In this document: positions 1 through 11,969 of the stretch, piece by piece
Position numbering within the stretch: position 1 is the first letter of the stretch
Layout: each line of letters starts with the position of its first letter
Virus record (IMG/VR): IMGVR_UViG_2734482785_000020
Span: 1 to 11,969 of that record
Strand: one strand, 5' to 3'
Origin: a virus
Taxonomy: Duplodnaviria > Heunggongvirae > Uroviricota > Caudoviricetes
Length of the DNA: 11,969 bases
Notes under the pieces: generated by a model
What the model was told of the DNA's origin: nothing
The model's input: only the letters and a program-made list of their open reading frames with translations
Database searches by the model: none
Translations under genes and position numbers: made by a program

Positions 1-147
1 ATGACGCAAATTCCGTTAAAAACCCTGCTACTGTGTTTAACCGCAGTAGCGATAATCTGGATCCTCCACACATCACCTTGTGAGTTGCGATTCAGGTTTG
101 CAGGAACGGAAATTGCGGCATTCTTACAATGTAAGTCTACACAGTAA
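1..147 (+). CDS. hok: Hok/Gef-family type I toxin (small membrane peptide), 48 aa
   Basis: ATG at 1 to TAA at 145-147. Translation MTQIPLKTLLLCLTAVAIIWILHTSPCELRFRFAGTEIAAFLQCKSTQ has an N-terminal hydrophobic helix and the C-E-L-R-F-R ... E-I-A-A-F-L-x-C-K signature recalled from Hok family toxins. It is below the 60-aa cutoff of the ORF track. Any mok/sok partner would lie upstream, outside the window. Confidence 0.75.
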   Translation: MTQIPLKTLLLCLTAVAIIWILHTSPCELRFRFAGTEIAAFLQCKSTQ

Positions 148-155
148 GGAACCGC

Positions 156-179
156 GACGGGGAAGTCAACTTCCCCGTC
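156..179 (+). other. Stable stem-loop in the hok 3' region (10-bp GC-rich stem GACGGGGAAG / CTTCCCCGTC, 4-nt loop)
   Basis: Perfect inverted repeat read directly from the sequence, 9 nt after the hok stop. It has no U-tract, so it is more likely an mRNA-stabilising or fold-back element than a terminator. Confidence 0.5.
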
Positions 180-237
180 AATCGGTTGCCAGGGTAAAGG
201 CCGGAACGGCACCCTATCTGCAGTCATGAACATCACA

Positions 238-270
238 AACCCGCCGTGTAAAAGCTGCGGGTTTTCTTTT
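238..270 (+). terminator. Rho-independent terminator-like hairpin oriented for the + strand (hok transcript)
   Basis: Stem AACCCGC / GCGGGTT with a 12-nt loop, followed by TTTTCTTTT. It lies between the hok stop and the 3' end of the convergent ogr-like gene. Confidence 0.45.
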
Positions 271-281
271 GGCTGGTATCC

Positions 282-536
282 TCAGGCCTGTAGTAGTTCC
301 AGCGCCATTTGCTTTTCCTCCGGGCGCATTCGTTCGATCAACAGCTTCAACACGCCGTTCTCCAGTCCGCTGGGGGTCAGTGTGTGCGAGTAGGTCAGAT
401 TCATCACCCAGGTATGCCCGCACTCAAGACGCTTGCAACGATAATACACGTCAGCAAACCGATCATCTTTCCAGAAGGTCTTTTCAATCACTGCTTGCTC
501 ACCACAGCAAAAACACCGCGCTTTCTGTCTGCGCAC
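282..536 (-). CDS. ogr: Ogr/Delta-family zinc-finger late-gene transcriptional activator (84 aa, GTG start)
   Basis: Cys-x2-Cys ... Cys-x4-Cys arrangement (RCFCCGEQ ... YRCKRLECGHTWV) followed by an aromatic-rich segment, matching the P2 Ogr / P4 Delta fold as recalled. The start codon is GTG at 536-534 with a GGAGG Shine-Dalgarno 7 nt upstream; stop TGA at 282-284. Confidence 0.75.
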   Translation of the reverse strand: MRRQKARCFCCGEQAVIEKTFWKDDRFADVYYRCKRLECGHTWVMNLTYSHTLTPSGLENGVLKLLIERMRPEEKQMALELLQA

Positions 537-686
537 TCCGGCACCTCCTGAATAAACGCTGATTGCTTGACCTGATTTTACTCGTCATCACGGGGGGGGG
601 TAACAGTCATTTCATTCAGTATCACTGTGTTAATTTTGTGTTACTGGTCTAACCAGTGGTTTTTGGGCTCTGTCTCATAATCCGGT

Positions 687-992
687 GGGGGGTGCGCAAG
701 TGGGTCACAAAGGTCACAACAGTCAAAAACAATGCTTAATATCATGATTTAAAAAGGAAATATTTGTGACCTTTTCAAGGTCACAGAAGGTCACACGAGG
801 TCACAGCCTTCAAAAATACCTTAATTATCAATTTGTTATAATTTTAATGTGTGACCTTTAGTGACTTCTCCAAAAGGTTACATGTGACTTTGTTGTGACC
901 CATTTGTGACCTTTAAAATTTACAGCAATATATTGATATATAATATGTTTTTCTATTTGTGACTTTTGTGACCCACTTGCGCACCCCCCCCC
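687..992. repeat. Iteron array (about 13 copies of GGTCACA / TGTGACC) in dyad arrangement with an AT-rich centre, bounded by 32-bp inverted repeats; putative ori/crr-like replication region or recombinase site
   Basis: GGTCACA at 703, 712, 779, 789, 799; TGTGACC or TGTGACT at 765, 850, 883, 894, 905, 958, 967, plus a degenerate copy at 861; spacing 9-11 bp. Left arm 687-718 (GGGGGGTGCGCAAGTGGGTCACAAAGGTCACA) is the reverse complement of 958-992 with one mismatch. AT-rich segments at about 820-848 and 912-957. The array is non-coding and sits immediately 3' of the recombinase and alpha-like genes. Confidence 0.7.
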
Positions 993-1190
993 AAATTTTA
1001 GCGCGACCCCTTAAAATGTTAATTAAACTCACTTGCTCTGTCTCACTCTCGCTAACTCTCTGTGATTGAAATGTATATCGCTACTGTTTGACTCTTTCTG
1101 ATAATTCGGGTGCGAGAGCAAAAAAATTGATGACGGCCACCGCTGCAATATGACCGTCATCGCATTGCTGTTACCGTTGGTTCTGGCCAA

Positions 1191-1218
1191 CAAAAAAGGT
1201 CAGTGGAAAACCGACCTC
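1191..1218 (-). terminator. Weak candidate intrinsic terminator for the alpha-recombinase operon
   Basis: On the minus strand a short stem (AGGTC / GACCT, 11-nt loop) is followed by TTTTTT, about 30 nt downstream of the recombinase stop. The stem is short, so support is weak. Confidence 0.3.
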
Positions 1219-1246
1219 TTTTGCTGCGAATGTAGCGTTCTGTGGG

Positions 1247-2248
1247 TTACTCTGCTGGCTCTTTTTGTTCAGTGAATGCCATATTAGCTATCGGGTTAAA
1301 CCTTATGGCATCCGCCAGATAGTCGGGGGAAAAATGCGCATAAGTCATCGTTTGCTGGATAGTCGCATGTCCAAGAATCCGTTGTAATGTAACGATATTC
1401 CCACCGTTCATCATAAAGTGTGTGGCAAATGTATGACGCATGACATGCGTAGCCTGCCCCTTCGGTAAATCCGGCTTCACCTCCTGAAGGATCTCCCGGA
1501 ACTTCAGATAATCAACCTGATACAACAACCCCGTCCGGCGGGTCTTAATCAGCGGCACGACCGAATCAGCCACAGGAACCGAACGGGATTTTCCGTTTTT
1601 GGTGTTAAAGAACGTCACCCGGTTGCCAATGATGTGCTCTCCACGTAGTTCCGATGCTTCACTCCATCGGGCACCAGTAGAAAGACACAGAATGGCAACA
1701 CAACGCGCATCACCCTCCAGTCGCTCAAGAAGCCGCTCAATCTCATCATCAGAAAGAAAGGCCATCTCTGTATTCTGAATTTTTAGCTTGCGTATACTGC
1801 GCACAGGGTTCGGGTTGTGAAAGACTCCTGCTTCAATCAGCACCGTGAACATGGTAGACAGAACGCACAAGTCACGATTAATGCTGGATGGCATTAAGCC
1901 GGCCTGTAATTTCTCTGATCGATACTCAAGCATAAATTTTTGTGTCATCTGGCTGGCGCGCGGATCTCCCATTTCACGAATCACTTTCTCCAGCCGGATC
2001 CTATAGGTATCGCCGTAAGCCTGGTTACGGCCATCAAGCATCCACCACGTATCAAGCAACTCTGATAATCGCCGGCGATCTGCGGGTTTAGCCAGCCATG
2101 GGTTGTTATGGAAATTCTGTAAAATATGTTTTTCGAAGACCTCTGCACTCCCTTTCCTGACAAAAATTTTCCGTATCCGTTTGCCGTACGCCCCTTGGGG
2201 CCTGATATCGAGCATCCATCGCCCATCATCCATCTTTCTGATCGACAT
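1247..2248 (-). CDS. Tyrosine site-specific recombinase / integrase (333 aa, P2-Int-like size)
   Basis: C-terminal catalytic region HVMRHTFATHFMMNGGNIVTLQRILGHATIQQTMTYAHFSPDYL carries the conserved R, H-x-x-R and terminal Tyr of the phage-integrase fold. The ATG at 2248 lies 2 nt after the alpha-like stop (TAA 2251-2253), with a GGAGG-type Shine-Dalgarno embedded in the alpha 3' end, so the two are translationally coupled. Confidence 0.85.
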   Translation of the reverse strand: MSIRKMDDGRWMLDIRPQGAYGKRIRKIFVRKGSAEVFEKHILQNFHNNPWLAKPADRRRLSELLDTWWMLDGRNQAYGDTYRIRLEKVIREMGDPRASQMTQKFMLEYRSEKLQAGLMPSSINRDLCVLSTMFTVLIEAGVFHNPNPVRSIRKLKIQNTEMAFLSDDEIERLLERLEGDARCVAILCLSTGARWSEASELRGEHIIGNRVTFFNTKNGKSRSVPVADSVVPLIKTRRTGLLYQVDYLKFREILQEVKPDLPKGQATHVMRHTFATHFMMNGGNIVTLQRILGHATIQQTMTYAHFSPDYLADAIRFNPIANMAFTEQKEPAE

Positions 2249-2250
2249 AC

Positions 2251-4920
2251 TTAAGCCCCCTCCTTGTTACTAAATATCCAGCATTTCAGTGTATCCGGCT
2301 CTTTGCTTTCTGCTGCCCCTCTTCCGACATTTGCCTGCCTGGATACCTCGCTACGGACGGTTTTGTACTCAACCAGCGGTCGGGAACGCCCAGACCTGAG
2401 AAGCTCTAACATTTCCGGCTCAGTCCTGATCTCAACGCGGTGAATGGCGGCAGTCTGCCTCAGTTGCGGGATGCTGACGGCGAACCCCTTCCGGTATTCC
2501 TTGCCGAAGTGATTTACGCCGTATTTTGTTGTGCTGTCCAGGTAGTCGAATGCCTCCCAGAACGCTATGACCTCCGGTAAGTCATCCGTCACCGCTTCAG
2601 CCTGCGCTGCTGCCATTTCCTCCAGTTCCCGGCATGTGGCATCAAGCCATTCATCCGGGATATCAATAACGCATTTCAGCGCCCTGACCAGCGCGATAAG
2701 TTGTGCGTGATTTTTGGCGATGCGGGGATGGCGAATATTTTCGCAACCGCAAAGGCGGGTCGTTTCAGGCTCTGAGATCGCCAGAAACATTTCCATAATT
2801 GCCCGTTCGCGGCTGACCGCCCGATGAATAAAGCCTGATACTTCCTCAACGGGGTAGAGTTCCAGCCGTCTCGCCGCCAGTCGGGTATCAGGTGAATGGC
2901 GTTTTTTATCGGTATATATGCGAATCAGTCGCTCAATAATTGCCAGTGAGGCATTTACCCTGGCATTCTGTGCAATCACGATAGCACCCTTAAAATCCGG
3001 GTCGTAGGTGTTGTTATTGTTGGTCTTAACGCCACGAACGCCGATACCACCGCCGTTATAGAGGCTTTTCAGGTTGTCAAAGTCAAACGCGCCTTTTTTC
3101 TGCACCTTGTCCCCCCTGTCAGCCTCAATCAGCACAACGGGCAACCCGGCGACCTGTCCAAAAGTGCGCTTCCAGCCCGCTTCAGAGCCTTTCGTTGGAT
3201 CAACGCCTTCGTAGTTGTCACGACCGCACAGTCGCCAGCAAAAATCAATCAATGTTGATTTGCCCGTTCCGGGCTCTCCGGTGACTTCAAGGAAAGGGAA
3301 AGATTCTGCTTTATCCCGGATTTGCTCACTGAACAGCGAACCCAGCCAGAAAGCCAGGGTAATAATTCCCTTTTCACCAAAAGCCAGCCAGAGATCTTTC
3401 ACCCAGAATTCTGTGAATTCATCCGGTTTTTTATAGTTAATCTGTAATGTTGGTGTTTTACTTAATGGTTTTGCGTTTATGCCATCAATTTCAAAATAAT
3501 CCTCGTCATTGATTTCGTAGGTTTTACCATTACAAACCGCGACATCATTAAACAGCCACGCGCCAATCTCTTTGTTGTATCCGATAAAATCCTGACCAAT
3601 AACCTCTTTTATTGCGGGAAGGTCATTTTTTATTAATGCGTCAAGCTGCGTAGTCGTTCCGGTATAAATACCACCTTTTGCCACATGTAACAGGCGTTTC
3701 TTAAATTCAGATGCGGATGTTAATTGTCCTGATGTAAAAGTATTTTTCACTGTAGTACCATCCGGGAACGTTACACGGAAGTAATACCATGCTTCATCCG
3801 TGTCATTGTTTCGAATGTAATAAAGCGGCGCTGGGTTACAGTTTGCGATTTCTTTTACTGCACCGGATTCCTTAAGTGCAATTTTTCGCGCTTCATCTTC
3901 GTCAACATTTCGCTCATTAATGACACGCTCAACAGCCTTCATATGGCGCTCAATATCCAGCTTGAACCAGAAAACACGGTTATCAAAAGTAAAATGAAAT
4001 TCCTTTCGCTCACGAAAGGAAAACATTATTAGCGCCTTATCTCTTGGAGATTTCGCCAGCAATAAATCACCGTAATAGCGGTATCTTTTCACATCATGGC
4101 CATGCAGCCTTCCGGCGATGTGTAAATCATTCCAGTCGCGTTTATTGCTGTTTTTACCTGGTAATGCTGCCGCCGTTCTCCAGCCGTCTTCGGCGCTGCG
4201 TTCTGCATGTTTTTTCGCGTAACGCTCACCCGCACGCCCGTTATCCAGCGCCCACACGATAACCGGGCGTGGATTATCCCCGCACAGCTTCGCCAGTTCT
4301 TCCAGCGATTTATCAGGGTAGTTCACGGCAGACATGACAGAAACGGCCGCAATGCCATTCTGGTTAAGGCTGATGGCATCAAAGATACCCTCACAAATCC
4401 AGATTTCTTTGGCCTTGCTTAAATCCGCTCCCGGATAAGCCCACCACAGCCCCTTGTAACTGCCGGAAAAATTCGCCTTGCGAGCGAAGCGTTCCGGTCG
4501 GTCTATGATGCGCTCCCACCACACGCCGTCAGCCAGCGTAAAACGCACAGTAGCGGCCTGTTCGCCGCTTTCCTTGTCCTGGTATCGCTCCTGAGTAAAT
4601 GCCCCTTTCAGTGGCTCCACAGCAATATTGCGCGCCTCCTGAAGATAAGCTGCCGCTGCTGCACATGGGTCGTCTTTCGTGCTGATATAGCGATCTGACC
4701 ATGACGAAAACACATCCGGGTAAAGTTCTTTGGTCAGCAGGTCTGTACCGCATTTATTTTCGCGGCCACAGTGTACGATGTACGGCCTCTCAAGACTGGT
4801 AAACAGTTCCTTCTTTCCACATTGCGGACAAACACCATAGCGAAGATAGTTATTTTCTTCTTTAAAGTTGTAATCACGAATAAGACGGTTAATAATCTCT
4901 TTTCTGGTGTTATGTTTCAT
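2251..4920 (-). CDS. P4 alpha-like bifunctional DNA primase / SF3 helicase (about 889 aa)
   Basis: N-terminal zinc-binding motif (CPQCG ... HCGRENKCG), TOPRIM-like EGIFDAISLNQNG, Walker A VTGEPGTGKSTLIDF and a downstream VVLIEADRGD-type acidic motif, then a roughly 250-aa C-terminal extension, as in the iteron-binding domain of P4 alpha. Start placed at ATG 4920 (MKHNTRKEI); the ORF-track start at 4944 lies inside a hairpin and is less likely. Confidence 0.85.
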   Translation of the reverse strand: MKHNTRKEIINRLIRDYNFKEENNYLRYGVCPQCGKKELFTSLERPYIVHCGRENKCGTDLLTKELYPDVFSSWSDRYISTKDDPCAAAAAYLQEARNIAVEPLKGAFTQERYQDKESGEQAATVRFTLADGVWWERIIDRPERFARKANFSGSYKGLWWAYPGADLSKAKEIWICEGIFDAISLNQNGIAAVSVMSAVNYPDKSLEELAKLCGDNPRPVIVWALDNGRAGERYAKKHAERSAEDGWRTAAALPGKNSNKRDWNDLHIAGRLHGHDVKRYRYYGDLLLAKSPRDKALIMFSFRERKEFHFTFDNRVFWFKLDIERHMKAVERVINERNVDEDEARKIALKESGAVKEIANCNPAPLYYIRNNDTDEAWYYFRVTFPDGTTVKNTFTSGQLTSASEFKKRLLHVAKGGIYTGTTTQLDALIKNDLPAIKEVIGQDFIGYNKEIGAWLFNDVAVCNGKTYEINDEDYFEIDGINAKPLSKTPTLQINYKKPDEFTEFWVKDLWLAFGEKGIITLAFWLGSLFSEQIRDKAESFPFLEVTGEPGTGKSTLIDFCWRLCGRDNYEGVDPTKGSEAGWKRTFGQVAGLPVVLIEADRGDKVQKKGAFDFDNLKSLYNGGGIGVRGVKTNNNNTYDPDFKGAIVIAQNARVNASLAIIERLIRIYTDKKRHSPDTRLAARRLELYPVEEVSGFIHRAVSRERAIMEMFLAISEPETTRLCGCENIRHPRIAKNHAQLIALVRALKCVIDIPDEWLDATCRELEEMAAAQAEAVTDDLPEVIAFWEAFDYLDSTTKYGVNHFGKEYRKGFAVSIPQLRQTAAIHRVEIRTEPEMLELLRSGRSRPLVEYKTVRSEVSRQANVGRGAAESKEPDTLKCWIFSNKEGA

Positions 4921-4933
4921 ATATAAATCCCCC

Positions 4934-4963
4934 CCCCACTGCACCTTTTGCAGTGGGGTTTTT
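4934..4963 (+). terminator. Intrinsic-terminator-like hairpin oriented for the + strand, overlapping the alpha translation-initiation region
   Basis: 10-bp stem CCCCACTGCA / TGCAGTGGGG (4934-4943 and 4949-4958), 5-nt loop, then TTTTT (4959-4963); preceded by a C9 tract (4929-4937). On the minus-strand mRNA the same hairpin has no U-tract and partly sequesters the G-rich Shine-Dalgarno of alpha. Confidence 0.45.
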
Positions 4964-4964
4964 A

Positions 4965-5270
4965 TTAATTACTCGTTACTTCTTGTTTCCGGGCAATCCC
5001 TGCGGCTTCAGCCTGACGCCATGAAAAAATGCCGCCAGAAAGATGCATACCTGATTTTATTGATTGTAATTCCCGACTAATAATATTAGACAGAGATGTA
5101 ATATCTTTATTGGTAATTTCTGCACCCACTCCGCAGCTTCTTTCATCAAACATGATAGACATAAGGTTGATGAGATTAATTACATCTGTGAGATCTTCTT
5201 TTGCATCCTCTGTAAAAAAACCAACATATTCTTTATGTAAAAGATTTGCGTAATTCTGATTTTCAGACAT
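4965..5270 (-). CDS. Hypothetical protein (101 aa), AT-rich cargo-like ORF upstream of alpha
   Basis: Uninterrupted 101-codon ORF with GGGGAG about 5 nt upstream of the ATG. The composition is visibly more AT-rich than flanking genes. No recognisable motif. Confidence 0.55.
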   Translation of the reverse strand: MSENQNYANLLHKEYVGFFTEDAKEDLTDVINLINLMSIMFDERSCGVGAEITNKDITSLSNIISRELQSIKSGMHLSGGIFSWRQAEAAGIARKQEVTSN

Positions 5271-5337
5271 AAAAACTCCCCGACCCGTAAAGGTCGAAAT
5301 ATAAATTGAATTCAGTTATCAGTGGATAATTCGGGAA

Positions 5338-5556
5338 TCAGGCGGAAAGCTGCGTCACCTTTAACGCCTTAAAGTGAGTCATTCCCAGCTCTTCCAGCCC
5401 TTCGGCTGCGCGGCGTATGGCTTCGCCCGGTCCCGTTCCGTATACCGTTGCATGTGCATGTTTGGTTAACCCACGTTTATTAACGGCATAACCCAGCACA
5501 AAGAAACGTTTTTCACCGCTGCCATTATTTTTACGGGATGCTGAACGGGTTTTCAT
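5338..5556 (-). CDS. Hypothetical small protein (72 aa)
   Basis: ORF with an AAGGTG Shine-Dalgarno about 6 nt upstream; its ATG overlaps the stop of the upstream 62-aa ORF (ATGA overlap at 5553-5556), indicating translational coupling. Confidence 0.5.
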   Translation of the reverse strand: MKTRSASRKNNGSGEKRFFVLGYAVNKRGLTKHAHATVYGTGPGEAIRRAAEGLEELGMTHFKALKVTQLSA

Positions 5557-5741
5557 TTCTTCACCTTTACCACTGATGCTGTGAGTTCTTCTTCTGGTAA
5601 TTGATATTTCGGCGCAATTTCTTCCGTATACCTGATAGCGTCCCTTGCCGCTTTTCCTTTTGATTTATATTTATATGTGGTCCGGTAGTTTTCTTCCTCT
5701 CCTGTTACCACATTACGCAATTTAATATGAATCTCGTACAT
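5553..5741 (-). CDS. Hypothetical small basic protein (62 aa, MYEIHIKLRN...)
   Basis: Start chosen at ATG 5741 because of a GGAGGGG Shine-Dalgarno 7-8 nt upstream; the longer ORF-track version (to 5870) has no ribosome-binding site and overlaps the neighbouring ORF. Lys/Glu-rich. Confidence 0.45.
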   Translation of the reverse strand: MYEIHIKLRNVVTGEEENYRTTYKYKSKGKAARDAIRYTEEIAPKYQLPEEELTASVVKVKK

Positions 5742-5784
5742 CGTTACCCCTCCATCTCCAGAATGTTTACCGTGCATTTGTGGG

Positions 5785-5931
5785 TTAATTTCCCCGTTCA
5801 TTCGTGCGGCTGTACTCCATGCGGCTGGCAGCACGCAGGGCATCATCACAGGTCTGATATTCCCTGACATGAAAAAACTGACGAACGTCGCCGCTCTGGC
5901 AGTTAATCAGGGTGATAAGGAGCTTAAACAT
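5785..5931 (-). CDS. Hypothetical small protein (48 aa, MFKLLITLINCQSGD...)
   Basis: ATG at 5931 preceded by GGGAGG about 6 nt upstream; the start overlaps the stop of the upstream ORF. Short, so support is limited. Confidence 0.35.
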   Translation of the reverse strand: MFKLLITLINCQSGDVRQFFHVREYQTCDDALRAASRMEYSRTNERGN

Positions 5932-6445
5932 TGCACGCCTCCCGGATACGAATACGGGAAACAAAGACCAGACGGGATGCCGGAAGCAGGGCGCGTGCTT
6001 CGCGCTCACTGGCAGCGGTAACGGTATGAAGGCGAATATTTTTACCGTGGCACTGCATAAAGCGCCAGATAAAATCAGGGCGTGTTGATATAGCCATTTT
6101 GGCGGCTCCTCTTACTGATTTACGGAGTCTCGCCAGCACGCTGCTAAACATGGTGGCGGGACGTAACAGGGTTAGCAGACTGGCGTAAGAGAAACCAGCG
6201 AGCACAAAGGCTCCCCCATTACGCCCCGCCATAATACGGGGTAGGGTGGAATTACGGGCACAAAAAAACCGCATTACGGAAATATAGCGGCTACCCGCTC
6301 TTACAATCAGGCTGCTAAACCCGGCACCTGTTTTCTGAGGCGCGGGCAAACGATACGCCATGACAAAAAAGCGAGTCAAGCAATATTGCAAATTATTTTT
6401 GTGCAATTGCGCTGAGTGATTGATTTCTGTACGTAAAAAGTTCAT
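5924..6445 (-). CDS. Hypothetical protein (about 173 aa), Arg/Ala/Ser-rich
   Basis: Only long ORF in any frame across 5924-6451. ATG at 6445 with GGGA 6 nt upstream (an alternative ATG at 6451). The unusual composition leaves the frame and boundaries uncertain. Confidence 0.4.
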   Translation of the reverse strand: MNFLRTEINHSAQLHKNNLQYCLTRFFVMAYRLPAPQKTGAGFSSLIVRAGSRYISVMRFFCARNSTLPRIMAGRNGGAFVLAGFSYASLLTLLRPATMFSSVLARLRKSVRGAAKMAISTRPDFIWRFMQCHGKNIRLHTVTAASEREARALLPASRLVFVSRIRIREACNV

Positions 6446-6493
6446 AATCATTCCCGAACTGTAGATTCATAGATTTTTCCTTTTGTTGGTGAA

Positions 6494-6519
6494 CGGCCTG
6501 CATCCTGCGGGCCGTTTTT
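6494..6519 (+). terminator. Terminator-like hairpin oriented for the + strand between the capsid-like gene and the small-ORF chain
   Basis: Stem CGGCCTGCA / TGCGGGCCG (one mismatch, 3-nt loop) followed by TTTTT at 6515-6519. On the minus strand it is preceded by an A-tract rather than followed by a U-tract. Confidence 0.35.
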
Positions 6520-6531
6520 CTTATCCAGCTA

Positions 6532-7584
6532 TCACGAATTAAACGTAATCACCCCTTCATCCACCGCCGCATAAAGGTTCACATTCGCCAGTCCATAGCC
6601 CTGATGACGCCATGCCCGCATGTTCAGACGTTTGGTGTCTTCGTTCATGTCGAACTCTGTACGGTAAGAGCCTTCAATGATGTTAATCAGCAGGTTCGAA
6701 AGTGTGGTCACAGCCAGGCGTCCACCCGGCATAAACGGCGGCACAAAGGCAAAATGCCCGGCAATGGTGCTTCCCCATGCGCTGGCGGCTTCGGTGTCTC
6801 CTGCGCCGTTTGCGGTGCTGAAAAGACGCAGACGTTCAGCAGCTGCAAGTTCTGATCCCACCATCACCACAAGGCGCGGATCGTTCTGCCATTGTGCGGG
6901 AATTTTCGTTCTAATCAGATGCTGCGCCAGTGCATCCACCCCCGGAAAATCACCGCCTGCGCCCAGCGTGATGGCATCGCTGATAATCTGTCGCCCTTCG
7001 CTGGTCTTCCTGGCAATTTCATGCCAGCCGGGCGCAACATCCTCGCCGTTCGGGTTGATGTTCGGTGCGGTGAAGGTTGCCGCTGACGTGCCGTTAAAGC
7101 CAATCCGCAGATCATCCAGGTAAATTTTACTGGTCAGATAGCCACACAAAATCCCCAGCAGTGCATCGCGGTTTTTATCGTCATTCACTGCATTGGCCAT
7201 CACAACCAGGTTAATCCAGTCGAGATATTCACATGAGTCCATCTCATAGCATTCAACCGGAGAGCCTTTAATATCCATGGCACGGCTAAAGCGTCCTTCC
7301 TCGGCGCGTCCGGTGGATAAGCGCGCATCCCCAATAAGGTTAATAGCGGACTGATGCGGATTAACTGACAGATATTTTATTTGCCCGGAAAGCCAGTTAG
7401 AGGGGGAAATAAAATGCACAAACGGATTTTTTTGCGTGTATGCGCTGATACGTGCGTAAAGCTCTCTTTCTGCAAGCACGGTATTAATGGCGCTTTCGTT
7501 TTCGTTCATCGCCGGAGATGAAATATTGATACTTTCAAGCACGCTTTCGGCTTTATCTTTCAGTTCATTAATATTAAAAAACAT
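6532..7584 (-). CDS. P2 gpN-family major capsid protein homolog (about 350 aa)
   Basis: Alignment by eye with the recalled P2 gpN sequence: GFNG...V.GW, G.GGD...DAL and DP.LVV.VG..L.A blocks (ours LRIGFNGTS ... VAPGW ... LGAGGDFPGVDALA ... QNDPRLVVMVGSELAA) in the same order and spacing. Start placed at ATG 7584 (MFFNINELKDK) with an AGGGGA Shine-Dalgarno; the ORF-track start at 7656 would overlap the upstream gene by about 60 nt. Confidence 0.65.
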   Translation of the reverse strand: MFFNINELKDKAESVLESINISSPAMNENESAINTVLAERELYARISAYTQKNPFVHFISPSNWLSGQIKYLSVNPHQSAINLIGDARLSTGRAEEGRFSRAMDIKGSPVECYEMDSCEYLDWINLVVMANAVNDDKNRDALLGILCGYLTSKIYLDDLRIGFNGTSAATFTAPNINPNGEDVAPGWHEIARKTSEGRQIISDAITLGAGGDFPGVDALAQHLIRTKIPAQWQNDPRLVVMVGSELAAAERLRLFSTANGAGDTEAASAWGSTIAGHFAFVPPFMPGGRLAVTTLSNLLINIIEGSYRTEFDMNEDTKRLNMRAWRHQGYGLANVNLYAAVDEGVITFNS

Positions 7585-7594
7585 ACATTTCCCC

Positions 7595-8470
7595 TTAAAT
7601 AATATCTTTCTTTTCGGTATGTACAGACAGCAAAGCGGTCGCCGCATCCCGTTCAATTCGTGGCATACTTATTCTGGTATATTCCTGTAACGTCATCGCG
7701 TGGCGAATGGATTCGCTGCCGTTGCTGTAATAATGCTTCGTCAGAGTGCGTAACGCATCATTAATATATTCCTGCCGCAAATGGTTGTATTTAGCCATTA
7801 CTGAATAAGGAATGAATTTGATTTCCTCATTGCGTAAAGTGACGATCGCACTGACTGCCGAAATAATCTCCTTATAAAGATTGATACGGCGATTTGTTTC
7901 CGCCTCCAGTCCGTCAAGCGAAGCGGAAAAAATCCACGCATTATCGCCATCATGAGAAAGATTTTTCCCTGTATTAATAAGGCGTATAGCTTGCTCACAG
8001 GTGGCGCGCGTCTTGCCGCAATTTCGTTTCTCATTTTCAAGCAGATGCGTTTCATGCTCGATAACGTCTTTTACTGAATACCGATCACCATAAGGGTTAT
8101 CAGCACCAGTGGGCTGTAACGGAGTGTTACGCAATTCGCTGATTTTATTTTCCTGAGCAGTCACTTTGTTTTCTGCTTCGCGGATTTTTTGCTGAATTCG
8201 CGCAATGGCAATATCGCAATCTTCCGCAATATCCCGCATTTCTTCATCACTGATTTCATGCACTAATGGCAGGCAATACCCTGTGATATCGCGATATTCC
8301 TCGGCGTGTCTGTGCATGTATTTTGATGCAATGATATCTATCAGGCGAATAACCAGAGAGACTTCAGATTGTCCCTTTTGATATACAAAACTACGGGACC
8401 ACGATGCAATCGTGGTCATTTCCGGGCAGTTTTTAAAAACGGGTGTTAATATCGTGATTGTGTTTTCCAT
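7595..8470 (-). CDS. Hypothetical protein (291 aa), unknown function, with a predicted helical central segment
   Basis: Long ORF with GGAG upstream; stop 10 nt before the capsid-like start. The central segment (IARIQQKIREAENKVTAQENKISELRN) looks coiled-coil-like. No catalytic motif recognised. Confidence 0.6.
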   Translation of the reverse strand: MENTITILTPVFKNCPEMTTIASWSRSFVYQKGQSEVSLVIRLIDIIASKYMHRHAEEYRDITGYCLPLVHEISDEEMRDIAEDCDIAIARIQQKIREAENKVTAQENKISELRNTPLQPTGADNPYGDRYSVKDVIEHETHLLENEKRNCGKTRATCEQAIRLINTGKNLSHDGDNAWIFSASLDGLEAETNRRINLYKEIISAVSAIVTLRNEEIKFIPYSVMAKYNHLRQEYINDALRTLTKHYYSNGSESIRHAMTLQEYTRISMPRIERDAATALLSVHTEKKDII

Positions 8471-8475
8471 AAATG

Positions 8476-8787
8476 TTACTCCGGTAAATCAGTGTCTCTC
8501 TTTTTCTTTTTAGCGTGTTCATGCGGGTTATTTGCTTCGGCAATAGTTGGCGGATTGCGCAACCACCATAAAACATCACTTAACAACCAGGTGCATGAAC
8601 AGCGCCCCAAAGAATGACGGGGAGGAAAAGCGCCGATTTTCTCCAGTTCCCAACGCCGGGAGCGTGAAAGCGTTGTCATCTTTTTACACTTCTCTTCCCT
8701 GATGCGTTCTTCGCAGTCAAAACCATACTCGGCGAGTATGGTGCGACGCTGTTCTGGAGTTGGTGGAATGAATGCGGATTGAGTCAT
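8476..8787 (-). CDS. AlpA-like helix-turn-helix regulator with an N-terminal extension (103 aa)
   Basis: C-terminal half (MTTLSRSRRWELEKIGAFPPRHSLGRCSCTWLLSDVLWWL) fits the AlpA/Xis-type HTH pattern (S.S.....E..G.FP....LG.....W...EV..W). GGGAG Shine-Dalgarno 7 nt upstream of ATG 8787. The roughly 36-aa N-terminal extension is unexplained. Confidence 0.6.
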   Translation of the reverse strand: MTQSAFIPPTPEQRRTILAEYGFDCEERIREEKCKKMTTLSRSRRWELEKIGAFPPRHSLGRCSCTWLLSDVLWWLRNPPTIAEANNPHEHAKKKKRDTDLPE

Positions 8788-8860
8788 GTTTTTCTCCCGT
8801 GCTCTGAACTTTTCGGGGGTTATTTTTCACAAACCGCTCCAATCAGCTCAAGGAGAAGAG

Positions 8861-8894
8861 GGCTAAATTAGCCTACCGGAAGGCTAATTTAGCG
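8861..8894. promoter_or_regulatory. Tandem palindromic operator-like sites (GGCTAAATTAGCC, 8 bp, GGCTAATTTAGCG) upstream of the alpA-like gene
   Basis: Two 13-bp near-palindromes centred 21 bp apart (two helical turns); together they form a 12-bp perfect inverted repeat. They lie in the 121-bp gap between the cargo ORF stop and the alpA-like start and are followed on the + strand by a T-rich run. Confidence 0.45.
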
Positions 8895-8908
8895 TTTAGA
8901 GAATAATT

Positions 8909-9964
8909 TTATCTTTTTAACCAATTGGTTATAGTGTCCTTCGAAATAGTAAATTTCTTTCCATTTTTTTCTGCAATCGCCTCTAGTGCTGTCGCTATCT
9001 TGGTTGGTTGGTCTTTCACGTCACTGAGATACTCACCTATAAGTAAAGCCAAAACATCCCGCATACGGCCAGATACGCGTTCTGACTTAGGTTTTGAGTG
9101 TGTTAATTTGTTGTCTTGGGATGTTGATTTGCTATCAGTCTCTGGAAGGGGGCCAAATGCGGAGGCTCTCCATTTATGAAGATTAGACATAATATAGGAG
9201 CTGTATTTCTTTGTCATTACACCATCACTACCCTCATTATTAATAACACTTTTAATAGTTAAAAAATCTGACTTTGACAGATACAAATCATCAATATCAA
9301 ACTTAATTTCTTTATCAGTTAACAGGCTTACGCTGAAATTACTATCAGGCGCATATATTCTATTGTCTTCACCTGGTTGAATTAACGGGCGAAATTTCCA
9401 TACACTGAAGAAAAAATCGGCATCTAATCCAAAAAAACCATGAACACTAGCATAGTATTTTAAATTTGGTGTAGAGGCATCTATTCCATATCGTGCTAAA
9501 CTTTCTAATTCTCTTTTAAGTGAGTCAGGAAATAATAAAACACTATTCACCACGCAAAAATCATCGCTCACACATAAATTAGTTTTGTAAGTAAAACTTT
9601 GATAAAAATCCCTTACATCCAGATTATCTATTGCAGATATTCCACCTGAACGCCTTTCTATTATATCAACAATGCGCCCGGCAATCTCGCTAAAGTTATT
9701 AAATGACTCATCAAGCCCTAAAAAGACCTCTTTTTCTGACTCATTCAATTCTTGTAAATCGTTAACAAAATCAATTAATTTATCATGCCAGACAAAATTA
9801 TCAGCACAAAATGGTTCAACATAGCAATAACCATCTTCAATCAATATATATAACCTTATATTCCCAGTCATAGCCCAATGAATAAAATCATCAACTGTAC
9901 AACCTAACAACTCCGCAGCCCTTGTTATTGGGTAAAACTCTCTTAGCGGTAATGCCATATTCAT
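8909..9964 (-). CDS. Hypothetical cargo protein (about 351 aa) with N- and C-terminal helix-turn-helix-like segments; AT-rich
   Basis: A 357-codon ORF open from TTG 9982; first ATGs at 9964 and 9958. N-terminus YPITRAAELLGCTVDDFIHWAMTGNI and C-terminus KIATALEAIAEKNGKKFTISKDTITNWLKR both resemble HTH motifs; the middle roughly 200 aa has no recognised motif. The composition is far more AT-rich than the integrase and the backbone, and the gene starts about 15 nt after the integrase stop. Confidence 0.65.
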   Translation of the reverse strand: MNMALPLREFYPITRAAELLGCTVDDFIHWAMTGNIRLYILIEDGYCYVEPFCADNFVWHDKLIDFVNDLQELNESEKEVFLGLDESFNNFSEIAGRIVDIIERRSGGISAIDNLDVRDFYQSFTYKTNLCVSDDFCVVNSVLLFPDSLKRELESLARYGIDASTPNLKYYASVHGFFGLDADFFFSVWKFRPLIQPGEDNRIYAPDSNFSVSLLTDKEIKFDIDDLYLSKSDFLTIKSVINNEGSDGVMTKKYSSYIMSNLHKWRASAFGPLPETDSKSTSQDNKLTHSKPKSERVSGRMRDVLALLIGEYLSDVKDQPTKIATALEAIAEKNGKKFTISKDTITNWLKR

Positions 9965-9978
9965 TCTCGCAAATAAAA

Positions 9979-11181
9979 TCAATCTCTTTTATTCAGTTTT
10001 TCCAGATATTCAAACCAGTCATTTAACGCTTGTAATTTAAAAGGAATATACTGGCTAAGGTTATAGTTAAATTCTGCCGAGCCAGCATTATAAACGTGCC
10101 CTAATAATGACTCGACAATATGAGGCATCACCCCCATATTATTTAGCCCCGTTGAAAATGTTCGTCTTAAATCGTGTAGCGTCCATTTCTCATTATGGCC
10201 AAACATTTTATACATTCGACGACCTTTCAGGGATACGGCTGTGTGTGTTCGTTCTTCCCCTAAAAGCAATCCTGTATCTCCTGTTTTTCCCTTTAAATCT
10301 TTTAACCAACCTCTTATAGCTACAGGTATTGGGCGAACAATTTTTTTACTGTTTTTGCTATTCCCCCGTGGAACTGTCCATTCCCATGAAATGAAATCCC
10401 ACTCACTCCAACGGGAGCGGCGCAACTCTGCCGTTCTGGCACCAAATAAAATCAATAGTTTTATTAGTCGAGAAAAATAAATATCTCCGCGCTCTTCTTT
10501 TCCAAAACGCCAAAGATCTGCTAATTCCCTGTCACTCAACACTCGATCGCGTTGCCCGGCAGCTTCGCCCACATCGCTTAAAGTTAAGTGGGCAAGCGCA
10601 TCGCAAACGGCATAATGCCGAACATTACAGAACCTCAATGCCTGTTTTGCGTGTTGAAACATTCTTCCGGCTGTTTTGGGGCTGATTGCACGTATTTCGT
10701 CAAAGCAGTTAACCCAATACCGCGTATCGCACCGTGATAACGGAAAACTCCCAATTCTGGGGTAAATATGTTTGCACAATTGCGCCCGTATCAGATCTTC
10801 ATCTTTGCGTTTGTGCCTTGCATAGTTAACAAGCCAGTACTCCAGCGCATCCCGAACAGTAACAGGGGTGCGGGTTTCTTCGGTAAAAAGCTGAATCTCA
10901 ATTTTGGGGTTAAGTCCGTTAGCCAACCAGTGGCGGCAGCGTTCCCGCCATTTACGGGCATCTTTCAAACTCATATCAGGATAACGCCCCAACGTTACCC
11001 GATTAAGAGTGCTATCACGCCCACCGAGCCGATATGAAAAAACCCAGCTCACATGCCCTCTTGTGGACAATCTAACCCCCAGCCCTTCACCATCAGCAAT
11101 CATCTCAACATGCTTTCTGGTTGTGCCTGTCAGGGCTTTTAGTTTCCTGTCACTCAGCTTATTAGTTCCAGACACCTTCAT
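9979..11181 (-). CDS. P4-type tyrosine integrase (about 400 aa)
   Basis: N-terminal arm-binding-type domain (GLGVRLSTRGHVSWVFSYRLGGRDSTLNRVTLGRYPDMSLKDARKWRE) and C-terminal catalytic core (LHDLRRTFSTGLNNMGVMPHIVESLLGHV...). Start at ATG 11181 (MKVSGTNK) with GGAG upstream; the ORF-track extension to 11271 has no ribosome-binding site. Confidence 0.85.
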   Translation of the reverse strand: MKVSGTNKLSDRKLKALTGTTRKHVEMIADGEGLGVRLSTRGHVSWVFSYRLGGRDSTLNRVTLGRYPDMSLKDARKWRERCRHWLANGLNPKIEIQLFTEETRTPVTVRDALEYWLVNYARHKRKDEDLIRAQLCKHIYPRIGSFPLSRCDTRYWVNCFDEIRAISPKTAGRMFQHAKQALRFCNVRHYAVCDALAHLTLSDVGEAAGQRDRVLSDRELADLWRFGKEERGDIYFSRLIKLLILFGARTAELRRSRWSEWDFISWEWTVPRGNSKNSKKIVRPIPVAIRGWLKDLKGKTGDTGLLLGEERTHTAVSLKGRRMYKMFGHNEKWTLHDLRRTFSTGLNNMGVMPHIVESLLGHVYNAGSAEFNYNLSQYIPFKLQALNDWFEYLEKLNKRD

Positions 11182-11188
11182 AACTCCA

Positions 11189-11214
11189 ATGTGTATACAC
11201 GTATTGATACACAT
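11189..11214. promoter_or_regulatory. Palindromic element (ATGTGTAT-N10-ATACACAT, containing the perfect palindrome GTGTATACAC) abutting the integrase ribosome-binding site
   Basis: Read directly from the sequence; it sits 8-33 nt upstream of the integrase start codon. Candidate operator or RNA structure controlling integrase expression. Confidence 0.35.
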
Positions 11215-11355
11215 AACATGGTAATACTCAGAAAAACTGAAGTCACCCAAGAACAGAAAATGCTGTAACACAATGGAATTAAATAATTTTTTATACGGAA
11301 CGTGAAAAAGTCAGAAAGGGAGAGAACAAGAAAAACATTACTTCTTGCGTTATTT

Positions 11356-11383
11356 TCGGCACCTTTTATGTAGCGAAGGTGCC
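11356..11383. other. 9-bp inverted repeat CGGCACCTT / AAGGTGCCG with a 10-nt loop in the integrase-upstream intergenic region
   Basis: Perfect inverted repeat in AT-rich intergenic DNA, followed on the + strand by a T-rich stretch. Could be a terminator, an att-associated site or a regulator-binding site. Confidence 0.3.
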
Positions 11384-11670
11384 GGAATATATTCTCTTTT
11401 GTTACTTATTTCTATACCGTGCACAATATTTTTATCCCTCATATTTATAGGGTAAATTACCTGTAAAGTAGTGTCTAATTACCCGCCTCGCAAACTCCAG
11501 TTTTCAAATATCTATTTCAGGTCAAAAGATTGAATTATTCACTGGAGACGATTCGTAAATTCGCTGGATTTTTGACTAAAGTTTCTTTAGGATTTGTCTC
11601 ATCGTATGATTAATTACACCAATCGTTCAACGTCTTGCTGATAAGTGATGGCGATTATATGAGGTTAGCA

Positions 11671-11799
11671 ATGCCTTCTGGAAATCAGGAACCCCGCCGC
11701 GATCCTGAATTAAAACGTAAAGCCTGGCTGGCGGTTTTTCTTGGTTCTGCACTTTTCTGGGTGGTTGTCGCACTGCTGATTTGGAAAGTGTGGGGATAA
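11671..11799 (+). CDS. Small single-pass membrane protein (42 aa)
   Basis: ATG 11671 with GAGG about 7 nt upstream. Translation MPSGNQEPRRDPELKRKAWLAVFLGSALFWVVVALLIWKVWG has a charged N-terminus and one hydrophobic helix. Stop TAA 11797-11799. Confidence 0.5.
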   Translation: MPSGNQEPRRDPELKRKAWLAVFLGSALFWVVVALLIWKVWG

Positions 11800-11801
11800 C
11801 T

Positions 11802-11969
11802 ATGGTCGGTCAGGAGCAACTGGAGTCGTCACCATTATGCCAGCATAGTGACAATGAAACAGAAACGAAACGGGAATGTTCCGTCGTTATTCCAGACGAC
11901 TGGCAACTAACATCGCAGCAGCAAGCCTTTATAGAACTGTTTGCTGAAGATGATCAGCCGAAACAATAA
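11802..11969 (+). CDS. Small acidic protein (55 aa)
   Basis: ATG 11802 lies 2 nt after the upstream stop, with GGGGA 6 nt upstream. Translation MVGQEQLESSPLCQHSDNETETKRECSVVIPDDWQLTSQQQAFIELFAEDDQPKQ; stop TAA at 11967-11969, the window end. Confidence 0.45.
   Translation: MVGQEQLESSPLCQHSDNETETKRECSVVIPDDWQLTSQQQAFIELFAEDDQPKQ

Follow-up and report, generated by a model that had tools for sequence, protein, structure and literature searches.

A gene, here termed X, which lies between the integrase (int) and alpA genes of a phage satellite, is a lineage-fixed third gene of the int-alpA integration zone and is neither universal nor exchangeable cargo. The satellite, of ~12 kb, was analyzed in an 11,969-nucleotide stretch of DNA, referred to as the window, which comprises positions 1 to 11,969 of IMG/VR virus record IMGVR_UViG_2734482785_000020 (Caudoviricetes). 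X belongs to a protein family that has not been described before, diversifies rapidly, and is tightly tied to the int-alpA module. We tentatively favor a reading in which X would be tethered to DNA and would act, in an allele-specific manner, as a sensor or regulator of the integrase-AlpA induction module. Coordinates of the features discussed are collected in Table 1.

Position of X in related elements

The slot between int and alpA was surveyed in Escherichia coli genomes with a query spanning alpA to int. Forty-three genomes matched, and all 40 rows listed contained an integrase, a hypothetical protein of ~350 amino acids (aa), and a helix-turn-helix (HTH) regulator. The int-alpA interval was nearly constant among the matches listed (2721 to 2795 bp). 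At six E. coli loci that were inspected, the slot proteins were all X homologues (27 to 98% identity), and the reading frame of X was intact at every inspected locus. This element family was detected in ~43 to 46 of 5426 complete E. coli genomes, with the window allele in 3. The order int-X-alpA, on the same strand, was also found in Salmonella elements located beside gcd and in Candidatus Erwinia dacicola and one metagenome-assembled genome. A scan of genome contigs for X gave two loci; two further contigs were too short for slot order to be judged.

Six more distant lineages had the same gene order, with X matching at the N-terminal end or at the ends only. These were a 5-kb toprim island (L013), a D5-primase island (L014), a Pectobacterium island with HK97 capsid, protease, and portal genes that resembles a capsid-forming phage-inducible chromosomal island (PICI) (L016), an island with Bro-N genes (L020), an island beside yicC (L022), and one other lineage (L017). 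The distant X-bearing lineages differ in their primase or capsid modules. In a Klebsiella plasmid island, for which the X-AlpA pair alone was listed, an X homologue was located directly before the AlpA gene. The plasmid collection contained one X homologue and the phage collection none. Architecture and position of X were kept across genera down to ~20% identity. YfjH, which occupies the int-alpA slot of CP4-57, was considered as a relative but proved to be unrelated to X.

A preliminary description of this DNA had regarded X as variable cargo in an integrase-proximal hotspot. This view did not hold, as the int-alpA slot contained a ~350-aa hypothetical protein in all 40 listed rows and an X homologue at every locus inspected, including the Salmonella and distant islands. 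In the canonical P4 layout, the defense hotspot is flanked by int on one side and by psu-delta-sid on the other (PMC8628076; bioRxiv 10.64898/2026.02.27.708500). Like X, the P4-like hotspot (Rousset et al. 2022, PMC9122126; PMC8628076) is integrase proximal, AT rich, and varies between related satellites; unlike the X slot, which lies between int and alpA and houses one family, it is located between int and psu-delta-sid and contains unrelated systems. The canonical P4 hotspot setting was not found in the window, since psu and sid are both absent from the element, which exhibits the order int-X-alpA-...-primase-int2-ogr/delta. The preliminary description had itself set a conserved backbone gene with a known housekeeping role against its cargo view. 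Conservation as a backbone gene was what the slot survey detected, while no family match pointed to a known role.

Reading frame, start, and composition of X

The longer X frame (8909 to 9982, minus strand) consists of 357 codons starting from a TTG that overlaps the integrase stop at 9979 to 9981. All of the database homologues (21/21) were of ~349 aa with an N terminus of MALPLREF or MPLPLREY and, hence, the start was assigned to the ATG at 9956 to 9958. This start puts the spacing from the integrase stop at 20 nucleotides (nt) rather than at the ~15 nt initially described. The probability of 357 open codons at this base composition was ~2e-13, and the longest open frame reached in 1000 shuffles was 162 codons, in keeping with the initial claim that such a frame was unlikely to occur by chance. 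The ratio of nonsynonymous to synonymous substitution rates (dN/dS) relative to related alleles was 0.27 to 0.33 overall and 0.03 to 0.15 in the N-terminal domain; this purifying selection indicated that X is a genuine coding gene. Together with the shared start of the homologues, it upheld the minus-strand open reading frame (ORF) of the preliminary description.

The G+C content of X was 0.350 (0.28 at third codon positions [GC3]), lower than in the integrase (0.44), alpA (0.484), and the window as a whole (0.454), so that the reported AT richness was evident; the G+C content of X was also below that of the flanks in 14 of 15 lineages. The reported neighbors, a P4-type integrase upstream and an AlpA-family gene downstream, were also recovered by Pfam. 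The int-X spacing was 8 to 25 nt in 10 of the 15 lineages, and X is probably co-transcribed with the integrase, as had been proposed.

Allelic divergence and selection

Comparisons with the window copies among the E. coli elements gave identities of 81 to 83% for Int, 92 to 94% for AlpA, and ~91% for the primase but only 27 to 76% for X, which was therefore as hypervariable relative to its neighbors (81 to 94%) as had been anticipated. Identity drops to ~45% exactly across the central domain, and the breakpoints coincide with domain borders. In one allele (L004), identity was still 85 to 98% in the C-terminal HTH and in the intergenic DNA that follows X; in another (L005), these were replaced too. 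The central domain of X is thus swapped between otherwise near-identical elements. X alleles were also found to reassort independently of backbone type, as defined by which Int2 allele is present and where the capsid module is located. Judged from the sequences, this allelic pattern would be typical of specificity determinants. Along the gene, dN/dS was 0.03 to 0.15 in the N-terminal domain and 0.3 to 0.6 elsewhere, and the closest pair, the window and the E. coli STEC313 copy, had 7 nonsynonymous and 0 synonymous differences.

These arms-race signatures fit equally well with X being an undescribed single-gene antiphage, superinfection-exclusion, or helper-interference factor, which is therefore a serious rival explanation and one that we regard as possible although improbable. 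Such a factor would be made constitutively with the integrase, its central domain would recognize phage proteins, and its HTHs would act on phage DNA or transcription. The AT richness of X in 14 of 15 lineages, its hypervariability (dN/dS of 0.3 versus 0.08 to 0.15 for its neighbors), the exclusively nonsynonymous differences from its closest relative, its probable co-transcription with int in the quiescent state, and its dispensability in model PICIs (EcCICFT073) are all consistent with a defense function. However, the slot was never occupied by another type of gene among the listed rows, unlike known satellite hotspots (PMC8628076), X had no detectable effector or enzymatic domain, and strict same-strand pairing with alpA would be left unexplained.

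The comparisons also bear on whether X could assist the P4-type integrase in recombination as an accessory factor, i.e., a large Xis-like directionality or target-choice factor acting with Int and AlpA at att sites. X always accompanies Arm-DNA-bind_3 integrases, usually at 8 to 25 nt from int, as such a role would predict. Integrases that are 99% identical nevertheless tolerate a changed X, and ~82%-identical integrases are found with a 27%-identical X. Furthermore, the excisionase role is already filled by AlpA/Vis, comparison with an AlpA profile shows no homology to X, the hypervariable middle domain would have no obvious purpose, and EcCICFT073 excises without X (PMC6092414). An integrase-accessory role is, on this evidence, less likely, and we consider it clearly unlikely. 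Finally, X could be a selfish or neutral passenger, such as a decaying or host-directed gene kept through its linkage to int. The absence of an assignable function and the rarity both of the elements and of the window allele would be in line with this, but intact frames at every inspected locus, strong purifying selection on the N-terminal domain, and conservation of architecture and position to ~20% identity across genera make it very unlikely.

Domain architecture and family searches

The AlphaFold model of X (predicted local distance difference test score [pLDDT], 79; predicted template modeling score [pTM], 0.66) comprised a folded unit at aa 1 to 250, a disordered stretch at aa 259 to 293, and a three-helix C-terminal domain (helices at 297 to 310, 318 to 331, and 340 to 348). 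HTH-type segments had been reported at both ends of the protein; these correspond to a putative N-terminal winged helix, MerR/excisionase-like, and to the C-terminal three-helix HTH-like domain of the model. X contained DNA-binding-type domains only; neither the model nor the family scans revealed an enzymatic or effector domain. The isoelectric point (pI) was 4.4 for both the N-terminal and middle domains and 9.5 to 9.8 for the linker and C-terminal HTH (9.8 for the C-terminal domain). The N-terminal signature (Table 1) was near invariant throughout the family, and residues R294, S296, P318, K320, T342, and W346 were invariant in the C-terminal domain. A metagenomic relative of 380 aa (P0077) had two tandem copies of the unit formed by the N-terminal HTH and a beta-rich part, ahead of a single C-terminal region, which hints that the N-terminal unit normally functions as a dimer.

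A profile search of 1.84 billion representatives detected 420 X clusters at an E value of ≤1e-3, with 30 full-length clusters at ≤1e-30. The named family members, which were from Escherichia, Salmonella, Hafnia, Pectobacterium, and Serratia, were all annotated as hypothetical. Scans of X itself against Pfam, NCBIfam, PADLOC, and PHROGs gave no match other than a weak N-terminal one to phrog_13283, and there was no match to the defense hidden Markov models of PADLOC-DB 2.0 at an E value of ≤0.1. None of 123 X relatives matched a Pfam or NCBIfam family, while phrog_7144, of unknown function, covered 10 of the 123. Searches of PDB sequences with whole-family and N-terminal-domain profiles produced chance matches only, and Foldseek comparisons of the model with PDB and BFVD gave nothing significant. 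The absence of a recognizable family, first noted from the sequence alone, was thus sustained by profile and structure searches, none of which (Pfam, NCBIfam, PADLOC, and PDB) yielded a credible match.

Two known groups of DNA-binding proteins were considered as relatives. X resembles AlpA, P4 Vis, and excisionases in the putative winged-helix fold class of aa 1 to 50 and in being located in a satellite integration zone. It differs in having a length of 349 aa rather than 60 to 100 aa, in matching no Pfam family, and in the acidic character of its putative recognition helix, and membership in the excisionase/AlpA families (HTH_17, Phage_AlpA) was rejected on length and Pfam results. An AlpA paralogue as the origin of the N-terminal domain was ruled out by hhalign against a local AlpA alignment (probability, 0.5%). 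Similarity to the MerR family was limited to weak scores, and no Pfam or NCBIfam profile for a MerR-type N-terminal winged HTH matched X or the 123 relatives. X is also unlike MerR proteins in its extra C-terminal HTH on a disordered linker and in the location of the adjacent palindrome, upstream of the −35 element and not between −35 and −10.

Searches of the 123 relatives with PADLOC yielded eight weak matches to models of the PDC-S05 candidate system, one representative of which has been reported to be protective (bioRxiv 10.1101/2024.09.26.614923). These matches would favor the defense explanation, and PDC-S05 is, like X, a single gene with an HTH that is weakly matched by a few distant members of the X family. 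The matches were, however, near noise (E values of at least 5e-4), and PDC-S05 is defined by a RhuM domain, whereas no Pfam match to Virulence_RhuM was present in any of the 123 relatives. The window X had no PADLOC match even at an E value of 0.1. A follow-up PADLOC scan of 10 family members did not recover the PDC-S05 matches and detected only a weak mad1-like match to the N-terminal HTH.

Regulatory DNA between X and alpA

A near-perfect palindrome follows X and precedes the putative alpA promoter (Table 1); no further copies were found in the window. Inverted repeats of differing sequence were present at the equivalent position in 10 of 15 lineages. The palindrome is either a terminator of the int-X transcript or an operator. 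Several of the inverted repeats have a TTAATAAG-like core in common, which is unusual for a plain terminator. The C-terminal HTH allele was found to be co-inherited with the palindrome, a DTITNWLK recognition helix occurring with GCTAAATTAGCC and an xTxxRWxK one with TTAATAAG-type repeats.

The alpA leaders were folded sequence by sequence and compared with shuffles. The mean folding z-score was −2.35 for the alpA leaders and −0.29 for the X leaders, which served as a control. A hairpin pairing an anti-Shine-Dalgarno (anti-SD) sequence with the SD sequence of alpA was detected in the window and also in L005, L008, L010, L013, L016, L017, L019, L020, and L022. Compensatory changes were observed between these hairpins (CCCCC/GGGGG, CCTCC/GGAGG, TCTC/GAGA, and CCTGCA/TGCAGG), so that the pairing was kept in islands of very different kinds. 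These results suggest that alpA is under translational control via the leader hairpin.

Other features of the satellite

The listed genes are all on the minus strand, in the order int, X, alpA, a gene for an uncharacterized 291-aa protein, a P2 gpN-like capsid gene, an Icd-like region, small ORFs, a toprim/DUF5906 primase gene, an Int_N recombinase gene, and an Ogr/Delta zinc-finger gene. The STEC313 copy is 98.5 to 99.3% identical and sits between hpt and gcd, as did every related element inspected in complete E. coli genomes. In the window, the element is bordered by host DNA (~11346 to 11969) from the ymiA-yciX region of the E. coli core genome, which many genomes share at 100% identity, and likeness to the STEC313 copy stops ~165 nt upstream of where the integrase starts. 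Two different sites are, therefore, occupied by elements with the same integrase (99% identical).

The capsid module behaves as a mobile module. The second recombinase was kept in all E. coli and Salmonella relatives as two allele groups (~92% versus 54 to 58% identity). An isrK-like element (Table 1) and a c4-a1b1 target-like element adjoin the C4-type RNA; all three lie inside the Icd-like ORF and indicate P4-type CI RNA immunity in this satellite. A second AT-rich gene (4965 to 5270, minus strand; 101 aa; G+C content, 0.36; GC3, 0.26) is located just upstream of the primase in transcription order and had no family match. The left end (1 to 1250) contains the Ogr/Delta zinc-finger gene (282 to 536, minus strand) and, according to the homologous STEC313 annotation, a Hok/Gef toxin gene. 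Relatives hold MazEF in place of Hok/Gef; hence, the true variable-cargo end is the left end and not the integrase end.

Table 1. Locations of X, its domains, and other features in the window
Feature	Position	Strand	Description
Integrase	9979..11181	-	P4-type tyrosine integrase; Arm-DNA-bind_3 + Phage_integrase; the near-identical STEC313 copy is annotated as 400 aa
Gene X	8909..9958	-	349 aa, undescribed family; stop TAA at 8909-8911
X N-terminal domain	9809..9958	-	aa 1-50; conserved, acidic; putative winged HTH of MerR/excisionase type; signature LPLREYYxxxRAAELLxCxxDDLxHWA
X central alpha/beta domain	9209..9808	-	aa 51-250; hypervariable, acidic, without known fold; conserved only at G174 and an LxLSKSDFLxI helix (aa 225-239)
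X linker	9080..9208	-	aa 251-293; basic, disordered; pI 9.5; pLDDT <50 at aa 259-293
X C-terminal domain	8912..9079	-	aa 294-349; basic three-helix HTH-like; recognition-helix-like end ...SKDTITNWLKR
Palindrome	8862..8893		32 bp, near perfect, AT rich; 16 nt past the X stop, upstream of the putative alpA promoter
alpA leader hairpin	8796..8817	-	anti-SD (CCCC) pairs with the alpA SD; weak in the window copy, weakest of the set; strong in relatives
alpA	8476..8787	-	AlpA/Vis-family regulator or excisionase; Pfam Phage_AlpA 3e-7; phrog_2790 3.6e-30
Capsid module	6532-8470	-	homologue of the P2 gpN major capsid family (Pfam 5e-43); the 291-aa protein comes before it
C4/P4-CI-type antisense RNA and isrK-like element	6149-6236 and 6262-6356	-	Rfam RF01695, 74 bits, above gathering score; isrK-like, 47 bits, just under threshold
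Second tyrosine recombinase	1247-2248	-	Int_N + Phage_integrase; 333 aa; directly after primase

X as a candidate sensor or regulator of induction

The fixed position of X between int and alpA, its HTH-only architecture, its modular allelic replacement, and the adjacent palindrome are best accommodated by an allele-specific sensor or regulator of the int-AlpA module that is tethered to DNA, although our preference for this reading is a cautious one. In the quiescent island, the integrase transcript would provide a constitutive supply of X, whose C-terminal HTH would anchor the protein on DNA, either at the palindrome before the alpA promoter or close to it. The conserved N-terminal domain may contact a conserved partner, which could be AlpA, the integrase, or DNA, while the hypervariable central domain may recognize a ligand that varies, most plausibly a protein of the helper phage. 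In this way, X would set the timing of, and the helper for, release of alpA expression or excision.

For Gram-negative PICIs, the literature names neither a master repressor nor a helper sensor, and induction of alpA is attributed to a helper signal that has yet to be identified (PMC6092414). A more specific proposal is that X may represent a new family of helper-phage sensors or specificity switches of a large class of Gram-negative satellites, a counterpart of Stl, so far missing from AlpA-controlled islands, whose swappable central domain would decide which helper triggers the island or is blocked by it; in this form we consider the proposal doubtful. Stl of the Staphylococcus aureus pathogenicity islands is similar to X in adjoining the satellite integrase, in combining an HTH with a highly divergent allele-specific portion, and in having a fixed position with very different alleles; X was likewise found next to int with an HTH and an allele-specific variable region. 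The divergent transcription of the Stl-like class was not observed, X being co-oriented with int and alpA, with the palindrome between X and alpA as a putative operator. X also differs from Stl in lacking detectable sequence or fold similarity, in having two HTH-type domains, and in its acidic N terminus. The evolutionary logic of X could thus resemble that of Stl or of an immunity repressor, by analogy and without a sequence relation.

Several observations weigh against X being a sensor or regulator of induction. Acidity of the N-terminal "recognition helix" (D23 and D24 are invariant, and the pI of the domain is 4.4) is atypical of DNA binding. In the model satellite EcCICFT073, int is followed by alpA with no X in between and, therefore, X is dispensable for the basic satellite cycle. 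With P4-type CI (C4) RNA immunity present, there is no obvious need for a protein master repressor. Lineage L003 combines a different C-terminal domain with the same palindrome; co-inheritance of HTH and palindrome could be plain linkage, and the palindrome could simply be a terminator.

For annotation, the case of X demonstrates that an integrase-proximal location and AT richness alone do not identify exchangeable defense cargo. The location of X, exactly between the genes int and alpA, is shared by P4-like, PICI-like, and capsid-encoding islands. X is, hence, a concrete candidate for the component that mediates helper sensing and the switching on of alpA in Gram-negative satellites (PMC6092414) or may, instead, be a new satellite-borne phage-recognition protein.

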